A stretch of 40,505 bases of DNA from Nitrospiraceae bacterium (GTDB lineage: Bacteria > Nitrospirota > Nitrospiria > Nitrospirales > Nitrospiraceae): assembly GCA_037442105.1 (NCBI GenBank), contig JBBIQV010000030.1:1-40505 (forward strand), read 5' to 3'. How positions within the stretch are numbered: the stretch's first letter is position 1; the number at the start of each line of letters is the position of its first letter. A program made the position numbers. Positions 18,701-33,700 of the stretch are shown in pieces.

Positions 18701-21700
18701 GCATGATCCCTTCACGACGATCGTTCGCGACACACGACAACCCCGACCTCGAACCGGTGTCCCTCCGCAAAGGAGAACGCCGCCCTTCGCTCGGTCGGTG
18801 CATTCGCGAGGTTGTTGGCGGCAAAAAAGAAGTCGCCGGGACAATCCTGCTCCTTGGCGGGACTGATCTGACCCATTTCCGGCTCCGCGTCGCCCAAAGC
18901 CACGTACGCAGCGATACCACGCCAAGCTACTGGTCTCACATCGGAATCGTCATGCCACACAGCAAGGACAAACTCTCGCTCGTGGAAGTTCCATTAGATC
19001 CGCCCAGAGGTTTTTCGAGGATGCCCGAAACGAACGGGATTCAAACGTACCTGCGCTACCCTGATAATGACAATGAGTACGACAACACGACGCGCTTTCC
19101 CAACGTTGCGGTGGTGCGGTTTCCCATTAAAGCCGATCCCGATATGACGCTCGACGGCACGGTAAAGAAGGCGATCCGCCGCATCCAAGCTGAACGGGGC
19201 CTCCTGGACTTAACAGCCATGATCTTGCCCTGGTTGGGATTTGTCTGGGGGGCTGGAACGCCCGGCAATCCCTTGCTGGCAGGAAACGGCATCCCGTCGG
19301 CTGCGTTCGTCGAAGCGGTGTTCGCAGCGATGGGCATGGAACTGACCCCCGGCCTGGAATCACGTGCCAGTTGCCCGGAAGCGATCTGGCAGGCCGCAAA
19401 GTGGTGGCATAGCCATTATGAAACGATCAGCCCTGCTGCGACCGGGAAGAAATCGGGAGAGCACGCGCCCAAGGCCGGACACGAAAACTGTCCGTACGGC
19501 AAGTACTGGCTCGGTCAGCCCCACGCCGCCATAGTAGAGTAAGGAAGCAGACCCGGAACCAACGCGATGTGCGAAGATCGGATTTATTCTGCCGGAGGCG
19601 GAGACGACTTGATCTGGCGCAGGAGAACATTCCACCGATCCTTGTAAGCACCGCTCTCAATCTGGTGGATGCGAGTACCAAGGTCGGAGGATTGCTTGGC
19701 CATCAGAGTACCATGCGCCCTGCTGGCATATACTGCCACAAGAAAGGGCCGGAGGCCGGCACCGCAGACACAGACGCACAGTCCACACTGGACGCAACTT
19801 ACGAACAGGTCGGCCACGCTCTGAAAATCGCCGAAGACGGCGCACCAGATGCCGCGCATGACGTCGATCCCCTGAGGGCAGGCCTGCACGCAGGAACCGC
19901 ACTTCCGACAACCGGTCACTTCGGGAAACAAGTCAAAGAGAGCCTGCTTCGGGTCATCAATCGTAGCAAGGTCATAGGTCGGCTTGGGACAGGGGTACCG
20001 TCCGACGAGGGAAAAGGAGATCCCGTCTTGAACAGGAATCCGGCAAGCCAGCCCGGTCCGCACATGCGTTTCATCGGGGAGCCGATAGAGTACGGCGCAG
20101 GCCCCGCAGCATTCCCCTAGACACCCAAGCTCTCTGGCAGATTCCCACCCGGTTTCAAGCAGCGCCTCCATCAGAGTGCTCTCTTTCGACACGCGGTATG
20201 TCTTGCCCATGAACTGGATTGAGACTCGATCCTGAAACGCCATAGCCTTCGCACTCCTTGTGAAGCGTGACGCGAACGGTTCCATTCCACTCACGCCTGA
20301 CGACTCACGTATTACGGCACCTGCATCGCCACCCGCCTGGCTCTGATGTGTTCAGGGGCATAATTGGGGAGCAGCATGGGCCCCACGTTCCCATCGGAAA
20401 TCCCCGTCTCGGCCAACTCCCGCTCGAAGGATCGCACATGGTCGAGTGACAAGGCCTTTGGCGTGCCGGCTTCGTGCGCATAGGTAGACGCGGCCAGCCC
20501 CGCTCGTCTCCCGAACACCACCACATCCAGGAGGGAATTCCCCATCAGACGGTTCTTGCCGTGCACGCCGCCCGACACTTCGCCAGCCGCAAACAGTCCC
20601 GCAATCGACGTCTCACCGTTGACGCCGATCTCCAAGCCTCCGTTCTGATAGTGGAGGGTCGGATAGACCAGCATCGGTTCCCGGCCGATGTCGATCCCGA
20701 ACCGCTGGAACTGGAGATACTTGGCGCCCAGCTCCCGCTTGACTGTCCCTTCTCCATGTAGCTGGTCGATCATGGGCGAGTCCAGCCAGACGCCGGCTCT
20801 GCCGGCCGGGGTGGCAATGCCCTTGTCCTGTTCGCTGCACTCCCGAATGATGCAGGCGGACGCGACATCGCGCGGCTCAAGCGAGAAGAGAAATTCCTCG
20901 CCGTCGCGGTTGAGCAGTTGGGCGCCTAATCCGCGGACCTTTTCCGTGATGAGCAATCCGGCGTTCTGTTCCGGAAAGACCGCGCCGGTCGGATGGAACT
21001 GGGTCGAATCCAGGAAGCAGGTCTTGATCCCAGCCCGGTAGGCCATCACTAAACCGTCGGCCGTGGCGCCGTAATGGTTCGTGCAAGGGAAGCCCTGGAT
21101 GTGGAGACGGCCGAGTCCGCCGGTGGACAGGATCACCGCCTTGGCGCGCGCGACGTACAACTCTTTGGTTTCCAGATTGAGCAGGATCGCGCCCGCGCAT
21201 CGCCCGCATTCATCCAGCAGCAACTCCAACGCAGGCGTAAACTCCAGCACCCGAATGCCTGGTTGGTTCCTCGCCTCGTCGCGGAGCACGCGCATGATCT
21301 CCGCGCCCGTCATGTCGCCGCACGAGTGCAGTCGTTTGCGGGACGTGCCACCTCCATGCTGAACTCGCAGCCTTCCATCCAGATATTTATCGAACAGAAC
21401 GCCGAGCCGCTCCAGCCATTCGATGGCAACCGGCGCATCCTTGACCAACGTCTCGACGAGATCGGGCTGATTGGAGAAATGCCCGCCACCCATCGCATCG
21501 ACGTAGTGATAGCAGGGGGAGTCGGTTTCGGCTGTCGCGCCTTGGATGCCGCCCTCCGCCATGACGGTGTTGGCATCTCCATGCCGGAGCTTGGTGGCTA
21601 TGGTCACGGACGCACCGGCCTGCGCTGCCTCAAGGGCCGCCGCTGTCCCGGCTCCGCCCGCTCCGATGATCAAGACGTCCGTGTCGATGTCGACGCGATC

Positions 21701-30700: not shown

Positions 30701-33700
30701 GGTAAAGAAGGGCTTTTGTTATCGGCTACTGGAGAGAACCGGCAATCTTGTTCAGTCGTTCCGGTTTCAGCAGCGTAATCTCGCTTCCGTTCGTATTCAC
30801 CAAACGTTCGCGTCTGAACCGGCTCAGAAGCCTGATGACGGTTTCCGGGGCAGCCCCGATCAGTTCCGCCAGTTCCTCGCGCGTTAACCGGATGTCGAGC
30901 GTGATACCGTCTGAACCGCGGTGGCCGAAGCGTTGTCCAAGACTAAGCAGGAGGGCAGCCAGACGTTCCATCGTCTTGCAGAAGGGAGCGCGCTCGCCGT
31001 TCATCGTGGCGAACAACACCCGCCCACTCACGAGCTGAAGAAGTTCAATCGCCAGTGCCGGGTTCTTCTGCAGCAGTTCCAAATACCCCCGCCGATCGAT
31101 CAGGCAAATACGCGAGGGTTCGAGCGTCTCGCAAGTCACCTCATGCGCAACGCTCTCGCAGAAGCCGTTGCACTCGATCAGCTCACCAGGCCCCACAATG
31201 CCGACGATGCGCCGATGTCCTCGAGACGAAGACGCAGTGAGCTTGGCCTTGCCGGCGCACAAGACGTAAATCCCCAGGCACGGATGTCCCTCATAGAAGA
31301 CGACTTGGTGCGGCTGGTAGGTAAACCGGTGCAGGAATCGCTGGAACGTCGTGGCATCTGCCTCTGCCGCGCGGCAGACCAGACTCTGTGCGCGGACGGG
31401 ACACGTCTGGCACGTGTTCGAGCTTATTCCCGCTCGTCCACCCATCAGTGTTTTCTCCTCCGCGACAGGAGGTCCCAGCAATAAGGAAGCGTCCCTGAGG
31501 ACGTGTGCCAGGATCGCCTACTCACTTCACGGCCCGTTATCGTAGGGGAAGGGGAACAAGGGAGTCAAGCAGACCCCTCCCGGGCGGTTTTCCCCAAAGA
31601 GAACAAGGCATTGTTCTCTACAGTCGGCGGGTACTCCTTCCGATAAAGGCAGCAAAGGTTCGGGATGAACCCGGCCATACACCTATTTGAATGTGAAGGA
31701 GGGTGCTCCATGCCGACCGACTGCTTGTCCACACTCACCAACCGCGACATCGAGATCGCCAAGGCGATTCCGCTCTACCACACGCCGGGTCACCAGGTCT
31801 ATTGGATCGGAACCGTCACCGGCGGGGAGGAGATCGAGTGCAACGCCTACCTCCTGGTAGACGAGGGTGAGGGCTACTTGCTGGAGCCGGGTGGGTTCGA
31901 TCGTTTCACCCCGATCCAGGAGAAAGTCGACTCGGTGTTCTCTGCCCGGTCTATCACCCACCTCCTCTTCAGCCACCAGGATCCGGACGTGTGCGGCGCG
32001 GCCGCCGGCTGGCTGGAGTTCAACCCGCAGCTCAACGTGGTCTGTCCGTCGCTCTGGCAACGGTTCATGCCACACTACATGGTGTACAACGCCACGTACA
32101 AGACCATGAAGGACGACGGGCTGACTCTGCCGTTGAAAAGCGGAGGATCGCTCAAATGCCTCTCGGCTCCATACCTGCACTCCCCGGGGAACATGGTGGT
32201 CTTCGATCCCATCAGCGGCTTCCTATTCTCCGGCGATATCGGGGCAGCCGTGTACGCGGACGGCAAACCGCGATTGGTGATTGATGACTGGAATGAGCAG
32301 ATCAAGGCCATGCAGGGCTTTCATCAGCGCTATATGAGCTCTAATCGGGCCGTCTCAGCCTTCATCCGCAGCGTCGCGGGTCTTCCGATCAAGGCCATCG
32401 TTCCGCAGCATGGAGTGATCTATCGGGGCGACGAGGTGCAGAAGTTTTTCCAGTGGCTGGGGGCGCTGCCGTGCGGTGTGGACTATCTCTTCCCAGCCAG
32501 TAGCGGACAGCAAACAGCCAATGGCAGATGACTCTGAGCTCTTAGCTACTCGCTGTTCGCTTACACAGACCGAGGAGAAGACATGCTGACATACAGCGAT
32601 GCAGTCAAAGAACATGCCCGCAACGCGGTTAAGATTTACAAAGAGAAGTGGGCGGAAATCGAACGGCTCGCTGGATTCAAGATTCTGCCGGACGGCTCGA
32701 ACACAGCCTCTACTTCGGAGGATGTACAGCGTTACGTCAAGGCAATCCAGTCAGTAGGAGGGTTTGTGGGATATACGAGCGCCAAGATGCAGGTCACGAA
32801 TGCCATCCTGAAGATGGGCCTGGCGCCGGTACCCCTCTGATTTCGGAACGCTCAGGAAGACGCCGGTCAGCTTATGCAGTTGCCAAAGAACGTGGCCGGC
32901 AGAACGTGGTCGATCGCTGGGACAATCGTGCCTCTTGACGTCAGGTCGGCCGTAAGGCAGCATCTTCCCAAGCATCGAGTGAAACGATCGAGGAAGAGGC
33001 GTTATGGCCACAGCATCGGTGATGCTTCCGCTCGGAACAGCCGCTCCCCCATTTTCATTGCGAGACGTCGTGGGCGGCCAGATGTACTCCCTCAACTCGT
33101 TTGCCGGACAGTCTGCGTTGCTCGTCATGTTCCTCTGCCGGCATTGTCCCTATGTGCAGCACATCCAGCACGAGATCGCCAAGCTGGGACAGGACTACGC
33201 GGACACAGGACTGGGAATCATCGGCATCAGCAGCAACGATCCGGCGCAGTATCCCGATGACGCGCCCGGACGGCTCAAGGAAATGGCCCAAGGCCTCAAC
33301 TGGCGTTTTCCATTTTGTTTCGACGAGAGCCAAGAGATCGCGAAAGCTTACCAAGCCGCTTGCACACCGGACTTCTATCTGTTTGACGCCCAGCGGCGAT
33401 TGGTCTATCGAGGGCAGCTTGACGACAGTCGCCCGAGCAACAACAAGCCGGTCACCGGCACCCAAAACCCCAGCATCGGCTGCAGCATCAAGTGGAAGCC
33501 AGGCAACGCCCCTCCGCATGTCCGGTAGGAAACTGGTGTGTGATTGCAAAACCCCGCTTTACGATGCCGTCAGCATCCTCAACCAACTCGCGTGCTACGT
33601 TCTGTCTTTGAGCCGATGCCGGATCATCTCCCAGATGGACCGTAGCCCCAAACGGTCGGCCCATTCCACAATGTAGGCCTCGTCAATCTCCTCACCGCTG

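Follow-up and report, generated by a model that had tools for sequence, protein, structure and literature searches.

A predicted Flx-Hdr and soluble fumarate reductase gene cluster with an FNR-like regulator gene in Nitrospirales

In a window of 40,505 nucleotides (contig JBBIQV010000030.1 of the Nitrospiraceae assembly GCA_037442105.1) we analysed a gene cluster at 19584..31445, which most likely encodes an Flx-Hdr module coupled to a soluble fumarate reductase, bifurcating electrons from NADH to fumarate and ferredoxin. We lean towards the view that the product is a soluble NADH:fumarate/ferredoxin oxidoreductase of accessory function, probably induced at low oxygen; judging from its genes, the Nitrospirales cluster is a variant of a known, so far predicted system. 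The gene set, gene order, cofactor ligands and catalytic residues are seen in the sequence, and every catalytic and bifurcation residue checked in the alignments is retained. The first-pass annotation had proposed a bifurcating NAD(P)H:fumarate/ferredoxin oxidoreductase. The conserved gene order, the pathway-order setting of the module in relatives, the retained residues and a predicted FeS1-HdrB contact speak for that proposal, whereas its Tfr label and its role as general ferredoxin source had to be given up.

Gene organization

According to gene calls and domain searches, all genes of the cluster lie on the minus strand, in the order crp/fnr, cbs, hdrC-hdrB-hdrA, fused flxD-C, flxB, flxA, FeS1, frdA, FeS2:

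30726..31445, minus: CRP/FNR-family regulator, putative O2 sensor (Pfam HTH_Crp_2 and cNMP_binding; N-terminal C-x2-C-x8-C motif)
30624..30657, no strand: two TGAC-N4-GTCA palindromes in tandem (22 bp spacing), putative regulator binding sites upstream of cbs
30103..30495, minus: CBS-pair protein (PF00571 x2)
29599..30009, minus: HdrC, 2x[4Fe-4S] (4Fe-4S dicluster; TIGR03290 best match, under cut-off)
28516..29565, minus: HdrB, two complete CCG motifs, 10 Cys (PF02754 x2; PDB HdrB E 4e-32)
28701..28791, minus: ~92-bp repeat element in hdrB, in-frame insertion after the last Cys ligand
26501..28480, minus: HdrA, putative bifurcating FAD subunit (PDB 5ODC HdrA E 3e-209; NF040770 773.7 bits, cut-off 1100)
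24997..26409, minus: FlxD (MvhD-like)-FlxC fusion (PF02662, FlpD, N-terminal; 4Fe-4S, FlxC-like half C-terminal)
23852..24907, minus: FlxB, AsrA/sulfhydrogenase-beta-like Fe-S protein (PF17179; NF040829 and TIGR02910 under cut-off)
22988..23821, minus: FlxA, FAD, NAD(P)H and [2Fe-2S] (PF00175, PF10418; PDB 9NEZ sulfhydrogenase gamma E 4e-55)
22106..22891, minus: FeS1, cognate FrdB-type subunit (12 Cys ligands; predicted docking on HdrB/HdrC; tree)
20312..21967, minus: FrdA, soluble fumarate-reductase flavoprotein, non-covalent FAD (FAD_binding_2; Asn133 replaces His)
19584..20243, minus: FeS2, a second FrdB that stems from native FrdB of the rTCA cluster and was seen only in Nitrospirales copies

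Intergenic gaps measure 30-138 nt across the ten genes running from cbs to FeS2, and 230 nt after crp, in agreement with the short gaps and common strand noted at first pass. Likewise, the Hdr, MvhD-domain and sulfhydrogenase-like subunits named there were recovered with matching domains (HdrC, HdrB, HdrA, FlxD-C, FlxB, FlxA), including the two CCG domains of HdrB. The FlxABCD-HdrABC set is thus complete in one cluster (HdrA, HdrB, HdrC, FlxA, FlxB, FlxC and FlxD), which also holds frdAB. A regulator gene does head the operon, but the CBS-pair gene between it and hdrC had been overlooked. Scans for sigma-70 promoters and terminators remained at chance level, and since GC and GC3 of the operon are close to the genome range, a clear sign of recent import is absent.

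We compared 80 related loci. All nine genes stand in this order in 35; in 39 the tail of the order is present without a break, in most cases because the contig or the 10-kb flank ends there, and six are arranged differently. The set hdrC-hdrB-FeS1-frdA occurs without adjacent hdrA or flx genes in five loci, some of them contig-limited. Outside Nitrospirota the module usually sits in pathway order between fumarase and sucCD-kor (of the full loci leaving room for it, 22 of 23 have fumB upstream; sucC follows downstream in 40 of 48 and korA in 30 of 38). Three NXR-bearing genomes with long contigs carry it ~3.5-13 kb downstream of aclBA-acn-frdBA-sucCD and in the same orientation; in this genome it and the rTCA cluster lie on separate contigs, and neither kor nor fum genes adjoin it.

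Flx and Hdr subunits

The Fe-S ligands of HdrB, FlxA and FlxD and the FAD-site lysine of HdrA are present, as FlxABCD-HdrABC requires. The eight cysteines of HdrC are invariant across 40 sequences, and the ten of HdrB are retained in all aligned homologues covering them. HdrA residues K415 (equivalent to Lys409 of 5ODC) and E362 are retained in 44/44 sequences, and its dN/dS (0.02-0.06) is the lowest among the five genes tested. In 5ODC, as described in an excerpt of PMC6405883, Lys409 contacts the bifurcating FAD. FlxA keeps its four cysteines and D176 in 60/60 sequences; in the alignment, D176 matches the Asp of NqrF, which uses NADH, and by sequence FlxA would prefer NADH. FlxD and FlxC are fused in nine of the 45 loci having both parts, all nine from Nitrospirota.

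Fumarate reductase flavoprotein and iron-sulfur subunits

FrdA retains H325, T341, E342, R345, R366, H439 and R473, corresponding to the His, Thr, Glu, Arg, Arg, His and Arg (E. coli numbering) which we take to be the dicarboxylate site of fumarate reductases and succinate dehydrogenases. Asn occupies the covalent-FAD site in 162/162 rows of the FrdA family, and His in 23/24 SdhA rows; this exchange favours the reducing direction. The marks of quinone-linked SQR/QFR are missing, the covalent-FAD histidine being replaced and profile searches of the operon yielding no match to a membrane-anchor domain.

The flavoprotein had been labelled TfrA-type or methanogen-type. NF004900 (TfrA, cut-off 718) is indeed its best NCBIfam match, but it scores 345.5, less than the native rTCA FrdA (364.8), NadB (436.9) and SdhA (511.6) of this genome. 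As operon FrdA falls under the cut-off and is 51% identical to the ordinary rTCA FrdA, the label is misleading. In a quick tree of 67 of 186 rows, subsampled, it falls in a clade apart from native FrdA. Two other Frd/Sdh flavoproteins had been counted; PF00890 yields three (rTCA FrdA on contig C26, SdhA on C31, NadB on C29).

FeS1 and FeS2 are both FrdB-like and 31% identical to each other. FeS1, previously called ferredoxin-like, is of the FrdB type, with ligands fitting [2Fe-2S] plus 2x[4Fe-4S]. Neither subunit matches PF02754 (CCG), and NF004898 (TfrB) gave 29.4 against a cut-off of 385. Methanogen TfrB has thiol-oxidising CCG domains (NF004898 model length 488). FeS2 is 49% identical to native FrdB and clusters with it on a long branch in a quick tree of 68 of 162 rows, subsampled; this second, native-derived FrdB is a Nitrospirales-specific addition. 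Decay of FeS2 is ruled out by its dN/dS of 0.09-0.14. FeS2 was also considered as an adapter through which native FrdA would dock on HdrB, but this was set aside, as its residues at the predicted contact positions are of the native type (7/12 native-like, one FeS1-like), with Trp where FeS1 has Ala152.

Predicted contact between FeS1 and HdrB

A model of HdrB, HdrC and FeS1 scored 0.73, compared with 0.01 for the best of three controls, with partner pLDDT of at least 76. The score mark is reached by 116/157 solved complexes and 2/215 mismatched pairs, a calibration that is rough because of own alignments and three chains. FeS1 docked on HdrB in two of three runs (remaining run 0.00; contact agreement between runs at least 0%), with FeS1 residues 129-135 (cluster Cys131/134) predicted to contact HdrB 9-14 and 39-44 (CCG Cys10/42). 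Since the dicluster half of FeS1 resembles HdrC, the passing score may reflect fold likeness. Residues discriminating Hdr-linked from native FrdB are found at 12/21 predicted contact positions and 38/177 others (Fisher p=0.001), an enrichment confounded by clade divergence. DsrC (PF04358) was detected in none of five carrier genomes, this 86.7%-complete assembly included, with a positive control in E. coli. Together, the docking model and the missing DsrC favour a direct wire from HdrB to the fumarate reductase. Against the bifurcating reading as a whole count the ten intact HdrB ligands, which are expected of a disulfide reductase too, the separate contig of the module in this genome, the scarcity of NxrA among the family carriers, and the expression pattern of tfrAB in a tubeworm symbiont, which differs from the rest of the cluster (excerpt of PMC11636981).

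Bifurcation might alternatively proceed via a diffusible or protein-bound disulfide, HdrB reducing R-S-S-R and the thiols feeding fumarate reduction or another sink. Both CCG motifs of HdrB are complete, a second CCG protein (SdhE-like, contig C39) is encoded in this genome, and Flx-Hdr has been proposed to reduce DsrC in sulfate reducers, the thiol route being one of two models in the available passages of PMC6315080. Nevertheless, we consider this route rather unlikely in view of the missing DsrC and the docking model; moreover, a CCG domain for thiol re-oxidation is missing from both FeS subunits, and a search of longer proteins turned up a single fusion of FeS1 with a flavoprotein and none with CCG, a weak indication.

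Regulator and distribution

The regulator scores 73.9 bits with Fnr NF008365 (cut-off 228), and its cysteine motif is retained in 5/5 related loci with the N-terminus available. A TGAY-N4-RTCA pair at 22 bp spacing is present in 7/7 Nitrospirales crp-cbs spacers examined, window included, and occurs nowhere else in this genome. The palindrome TGAC-N4-GTCA differs from the FNR box, TTGAT-N4-ATCAA. Apparently the cluster is switched by low oxygen, and the FNR-like protein likely turns on the operon via the tandem sites. The FNR-like gene with its palindromes is a Nitrospirales-specific addition to the known design; the CBS-pair gene was found in six related loci, every one from Nitrospirales.

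The module occurs in 7/371 family genomes (~2%), the FlxD-C query having no match in 364/371. An earlier count of FlpD in at least four of 370 Nitrospiraceae becomes FlxD-C in 6/370 other family genomes, and its absence from the genus mate, which has NxrA, stands. NxrA was detected in 1/7 family carriers, compared with 269/371 family genomes overall, and neither NxrA nor NxrB was found in this 86.7%-complete assembly. That carriers are non-nitrifiers was considered, but is weakened: in several assemblies nxr is broken up or placed at a contig end, and NXR is found in the carriers with long contigs. Among the carrier genomes, G371-G373 have a full NxrA and G374 a partial one, NxrA also occurs in G290, and G018 has NxrB. 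The module is therefore present in NXR-bearing Nitrospirales. Being so rare, the cluster is not the general ferredoxin source of the group, and this genome encodes a 2M complex I, already proposed as ferredoxin-supply device (passages of PMC12342949), and a separate native frdBA. The NiFe-hydrogenase family (E<=1e-20) occurs in only 2/11 genomes, indicating no consistent H2 input; in this genome only a Hyf/complex-I-like gene (contig C4) was found. AMO (PF02461) gave 0/5 genomes, but controls gave no signal either.

Three sequencing runs from three studies contain the module; these are metagenomes of subsurface and hot-spring origin, and no RNA run was listed. This origin, the patchy distribution and the FNR-like gene with its sites would also suit a catabolic role with little link to CO2 fixation, i.e. 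anoxia survival with NADH from storage-compound or organic-acid fermentation disposed of as succinate, or the reverse, confurcating succinate oxidation. The same gene set forms a fermentative 'succinate operon' in Pseudoclostridium thermosuccinogenes (excerpt of PMC7282089). The position near aclBA in three NXR-bearing genomes and the His-to-Asn exchange argue against such a role, which appears improbable.

Proposed mechanism

In the favoured bifurcating reading, FlxA would take electrons from NADH, and FlxB, FlxC and FlxD would pass them on to the FAD of HdrA. Here the electrons would be bifurcated: ferredoxin would receive the one at low potential, and the one at high potential would travel along HdrC and HdrB straight to FeS1 and on to FrdA, which would reduce fumarate. 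The net reaction would be 2 NADH + fumarate + 2 Fd(ox) -> succinate + 2 Fd(red) + 2 NAD+, with a calculated energy of about -18 to -43 kJ. By stoichiometry, a single turnover in each round of the rTCA cycle would supply the ferredoxin used by OGOR, whereas the demand of POR would not be covered. The complex would add to native frdBA and 2M complex I and replace neither. A plain, non-bifurcating NADH:fumarate reductase with the Hdr parts as passive wire, like the soluble five-subunit, NADH-dependent FrdABCDE characterised in Hydrogenobacter thermophilus (excerpt of PMC13147460), is hard to reconcile with the conserved K415 and E362, the low dN/dS of HdrA and the kor genes flanking the module in relatives, and is very improbable.

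More tentatively, it might be speculated that some NXR-bearing Nitrospirales possess an O2-switched, thiol-free bifurcating complex where HdrB serves purely as an electron wire with FrdB docked on its N-terminal CCG cluster, fumarate reduction paying for OGOR's ferredoxin without proton-motive force, and in which FeS2 lets FrdA accept electrons from the still unknown donor of ordinary Nitrospira FrdAB.

Relation to known systems

The linkage and the bifurcation idea were already proposed for other bacteria in 2019 (passages of PMC6315080, PMC7282089); the first-pass annotation had acknowledged PMC6315080. By gene content, the tfrAB-korABCD-flxABCD-hdrABC rTCA cluster of tubeworm symbionts and Thioflavicoccus has the same co-directional Flx-Hdr and soluble Frd pair (excerpts of PMC6315080, PMC11636981), and bifurcation to fumarate and ferredoxin/OGOR was suggested there (PMC6315080). 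In contrast, the operon described here lacks kor genes, is accessory, lies outside the rTCA cluster, and has FNR-like and CBS genes, a second FrdB, the FlxD-C fusion and a Nitrospirales host. The P. thermosuccinogenes operon, likewise Flx-Hdr plus a two-subunit fumarate reductase, has been suggested to link the formation of succinate with the reduction of ferredoxin (excerpt of PMC7282089); it belongs to a fermentative anaerobe and includes fumarase, whereas our rTCA host has no fumarase in the operon and an added regulator and FeS2. Desulfovibrio FlxABCD-HdrABC (Ramos et al. 2015, via passages of PMC6315080 and PMC5947623) shares all seven subunit types, but in the Nitrospirales the neighbour is fumarate reductase rather than alcohol dehydrogenase and DsrC was not found in five carriers. 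Methanogen TfrAB is also soluble and has no membrane-anchor gene; here, HdrB is a separate gene and the FeS partners have no CCG. Native Nitrospirales FrdBA has a flavoprotein of the same family as operon FrdA, with the same catalytic residues and the same FAD-site Asn (81/81), but 0/80 native loci have hdr or flx neighbours within 6-kb flanks. An ESM Atlas search returned generic Fe-S cluster names only.

In the available part of a 2026 survey (PMC13147460), the electron donor of Nitrospirota FrdAB is given as unknown and the genomes studied as being without a co-located Flx-Hdr complex. Such a complex is encoded in a few Nitrospirales, along with a candidate regulator, and a specific contact between FrdB and HdrB is predicted; the proposal of fumarate-driven bifurcation thereby gains concrete residues and a promoter for testing.

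The repeat element in hdrB has five further full-length copies in the genome (88-92% identity), none of which lies inside an ORF of at least 150 aa, and among 46 HdrB rows the insert is shared with only one other locus (L014).

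The gene cluster and its relatives

We slightly favour the view that the cluster would act as an accessory low-O2 module, in which electrons are bifurcated to fumarate and ferredoxin via a direct wire. As stated in the first-pass annotation, an operon of Hdr, Flx and FrdA genes is indeed present on the minus strand: eleven co-directional genes were identified, and structural matches exist for HdrA (to methanogen HdrA in the solved structure 5ODC, E 3e-209), HdrB (to HdrB partners in solved structures, E 4e-32) and FlxA (to sulfhydrogenase gamma, E 4e-55). The intergenic gaps measure 30-138 nt between cbs and FeS2 and 230 nt behind crp. 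The gene previously called ferredoxin-like, here FeS1, turned out to encode an FrdB-type subunit, and frdA therefore has FrdB genes on both sides. The features are as follows.

19584-31445, minus strand: filled by crp/fnr, cbs, hdrC, hdrB, hdrA, flxD-C, flxB, flxA, FeS1, frdA and FeS2
22106-22891, minus strand: FeS1, FrdB-type gene
19584-20243, minus strand: FeS2, second FrdB gene
28701-28791: GC-rich, hairpin-forming repeat of ~92 bp, in frame within hdrB
21968-22105, 24908-24996, 26410-26500, 28481-28515, 29566-29598, 30496-30580: spacers with degenerate 7-nt units (GCTATTC-like) and imperfect inverted repeats
17278-19542, plus strand: two ORFs of no clear family, one of 473 aa with a faint PhoD-like match (E 0.056), the second of 279 aa without a match
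31665-32531, plus strand: ODP-family metallo-beta-lactamase, by family name of the oxygen-binding di-iron type, divergent from crp

The repeat within hdrB has five near-identical copies outside long ORFs on other contigs of the genome (C2, C20, C28, C29, C38) and appears to be a REP/MITE-type element accommodated by a loop of the protein. The 7-nt spacer units may be linked to four-helix-bundle-associated heptamer repeats.

A scan confirmed 390 related places, the best 80 of which were analysed; these loci are not independent, as they are kin and were chosen by similarity to FrdA. Among these 80, the complete order from hdrC to frdA occurs in 35, an uninterrupted tail of it in 39 and a rearranged form in one, while five (L025, L027, L063, L076, L078) have hdrC-hdrB-FeS1-frdA without adjoining hdrA/flx. 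L078 belongs to the cultured Desulfoferrobacter suflitae. Outside Nitrospirota, the module sits at the place of the fumarate step in pathway order: fumB precedes it in 22 of the 23 full loci with enough flanking sequence, and sucC follows in 40/48 and korA in 30/38 (best 80 of 390); locus L042, for example, is arranged mdh-fumAB-[module]-sucCD-korABC-sdhABE. The additional crp, cbs and FeS2 genes are found only in Nitrospirales copies, and the fusion of flxD with flxC in 9 of 45 loci having both parts, every one from Nitrospirota. No hdr or flx neighbours were detected within 6 kb of the native frdBA, the ordinary rTCA-cluster pair of Nitrospirales, at any of 80 native loci.

The flavoprotein and its iron-sulfur partners

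The genome encodes four full-length PF00890 proteins, namely the window FrdA, FrdA on contig C26, SdhA on C31 and NadB on C29. The C26 FrdA belongs to an rTCA cluster ordered aclB-aclA-acn-idh-frdB-frdA-sucC-sucD, where aclB was named via PF16114 and the remaining genes by reading their sequences. The earlier label of a methanogen-type TfrA had to be abandoned: the window FrdA scores 345.5 with the TfrA model (cut-off 718), lower than C26 FrdA, SdhA and NadB, is 51% identical to C26 FrdA, and has partners, FeS1 and FeS2, in which no CCG domain (the HdrB-type cysteine domain, PF02754) was found. All seven of seven dicarboxylate-site residues are retained. At the covalent-FAD site, Asn replaces His in 162/162 family rows, 81 native rows among them; in the same alignment comparison the His is present in 23/24 SdhA rows.

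In quick, subsampled trees (67/186 rows for FrdA, 68/162 for the FeS proteins), the window FrdA and FeS1 are separated from the native pair and cluster with Hdr-linked copies of MAGs from deltaproteobacteria and from further Nitrospirota. FeS2 forms a long branch that joins native FrdB, to which it has 49% identity, and is under purifying selection. A natural 638-aa fusion of an FeS1 homologue with a FAD_binding_2 domain (P0121) agrees with a partnership of FeS1 and FrdA.

Proposed electron path

HdrA K415, equivalent to Lys409 of 5ODC, and E362 are conserved in 44/44 sequences; Lys409 binds the bifurcating FAD according to passages of PMC6405883. The [2Fe-2S] ligands are retained in FlxA and FlxD. 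FlxA D176 is invariant (60/60) and aligns to the Asp of NqrF, a marker of NADH specificity at this position, which suggests that FlxA may use NADH. A methanogen-style thiol shuttle would have neither its carrier nor its second site here, since DsrC was found in none of 5 carriers (genomes with the module) and the operon encodes a single CCG protein, HdrB, in which ten of ten CCG cysteines are present.

A direct route is suggested by a three-chain model of HdrB, HdrC and FeS1, in which FeS1 set against HdrB and HdrC reached a score of 0.73 (best of 3 controls 0.01), a mark reached by 116/157 solved complexes and 2/215 mismatched pairs; the runs gave 0.73, 0.73 and 0.00, with contact agreement of at least 0% and partner pLDDT of at least 76. 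In this model, the first cluster loop of FeS1 is predicted to contact the N-terminal CCG ligands of HdrB. The dicluster half of FeS1 is similar to HdrC, and this similarity could drive the pass; a profile search with FeS1 returned no close solved relative. The predicted contact positions of HdrB are more conserved than average (0.75 vs 0.49), and those of FeS1 are enriched for residues distinguishing Hdr-linked from native FrdB (12/21 vs 38/177). FeS2 carries mainly the native residue set at these positions. Under assumed potentials, the coupled reaction was calculated to be exergonic by 18-43 kJ.

The bifurcation chemistry guessed in the first-pass annotation is probably right, given the conservation and the retained residues, but the design had already been proposed in print. 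For a tubeworm-symbiont Flx-Hdr/Tfr cluster, passages of PMC6315080 propose two options, electron transfer via thiols and bifurcation directly to OGOR and Tfr, and PMC11636981 describes co-expression of this cluster, tfrAB excepted; a fermentative succinate operon carries the same bifurcation proposal in passages of PMC7282089. PMC13147460 describes Nitrospirota FrdAB of the surveyed genomes as not co-located with a Flx-Hdr-type complex. No Nitrospirales with Hdr and Flx were found in the literature, the coverage of which was short on subscription papers. Taken together, the cluster is real and conserved and its design is known as a proposal; the novel elements are the Nitrospirales host, an FNR-like switch, a second FrdB of native descent and a predicted contact of FrdB with HdrB that can be tested.

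Regulation

Paired TGAY-N4-RTCA palindromes, 22 bp apart, are located upstream of cbs in 7/7 Nitrospirales spacers, and a pair at that spacing occurs once in the genome. The CRP-family protein encoded beside the sites scores under the FNR cut-off and has a conserved C-x2-C-x8-C motif, from which we infer that it may sense O2. A paralogue on C22 (45140-45814, 53% identity) has the same Cys motif. The divergent ODP-family gene, which adjoins crp in locus L016 too and has a 57% paralogue on C22, may be part of O2 sensing. Palindromes are in slight excess genome-wide (57 vs about 38 expected); single TGAC-N4-GTCA sites outside long ORFs on C8, C14, C17, C24, C37, C40 and C41 could form a regulon.

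Distribution and hosts

FlxD-C matches were obtained in 7/371 Nitrospiraceae genomes, the present one counted. As noted before, the genus mate lacks the module, the FlxD-C query being without a match there. FlxB matches occur in 9/401 class genomes sampled, in 5/84 of a second family (one genus only) and in 25/301 of a phylum sample, the weak matches of which possibly represent Flx or Asr proteins of another type. Genome handles and named loci possibly overlap, and their counts were kept separate. The module is too rare to explain the ferredoxin supply of nitrite oxidisers at large, and the idea of a general source for these organisms was dropped.

NxrA was found in 269/371 family genomes (two marked unpublished, G011 and G057, included), but in only 1/7 carriers. 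Searches of the present genome for NxrA and NxrB found neither; moeA and a nirK-like gene are present. Reading this absence as true loss is weakened by three patterns: G018 shows NxrB but no NxrA; in the genus mate, NxrA lies at contig ends and NxrB is missing; and a complete 1146-aa NxrA frame is present in the three carriers with long contigs (G371-G373). In G371-G373, aclBA-acn-frdBA-sucCD and the module share a strand, the module following downstream at distances of about 13, 3.5 and 3.6 kb. Both FrdA types are retained in 5/5 carriers tested.

Two tandem nuoM genes in the genome indicate a 2M complex I. This complex is encoded by all cultivated members and hypothesised to make reduced ferredoxin, as stated in passages of PMC12342949, in whose main text the terms hdr, flx and heterodisulfide do not occur. 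Besides two 2-oxoacid:ferredoxin oxidoreductases of the Nitrospira type, the genome encodes a third, of the PorA/archaeal type, at C13:39623-42703; this third enzyme is a possible low-O2 ferredoxin consumer.
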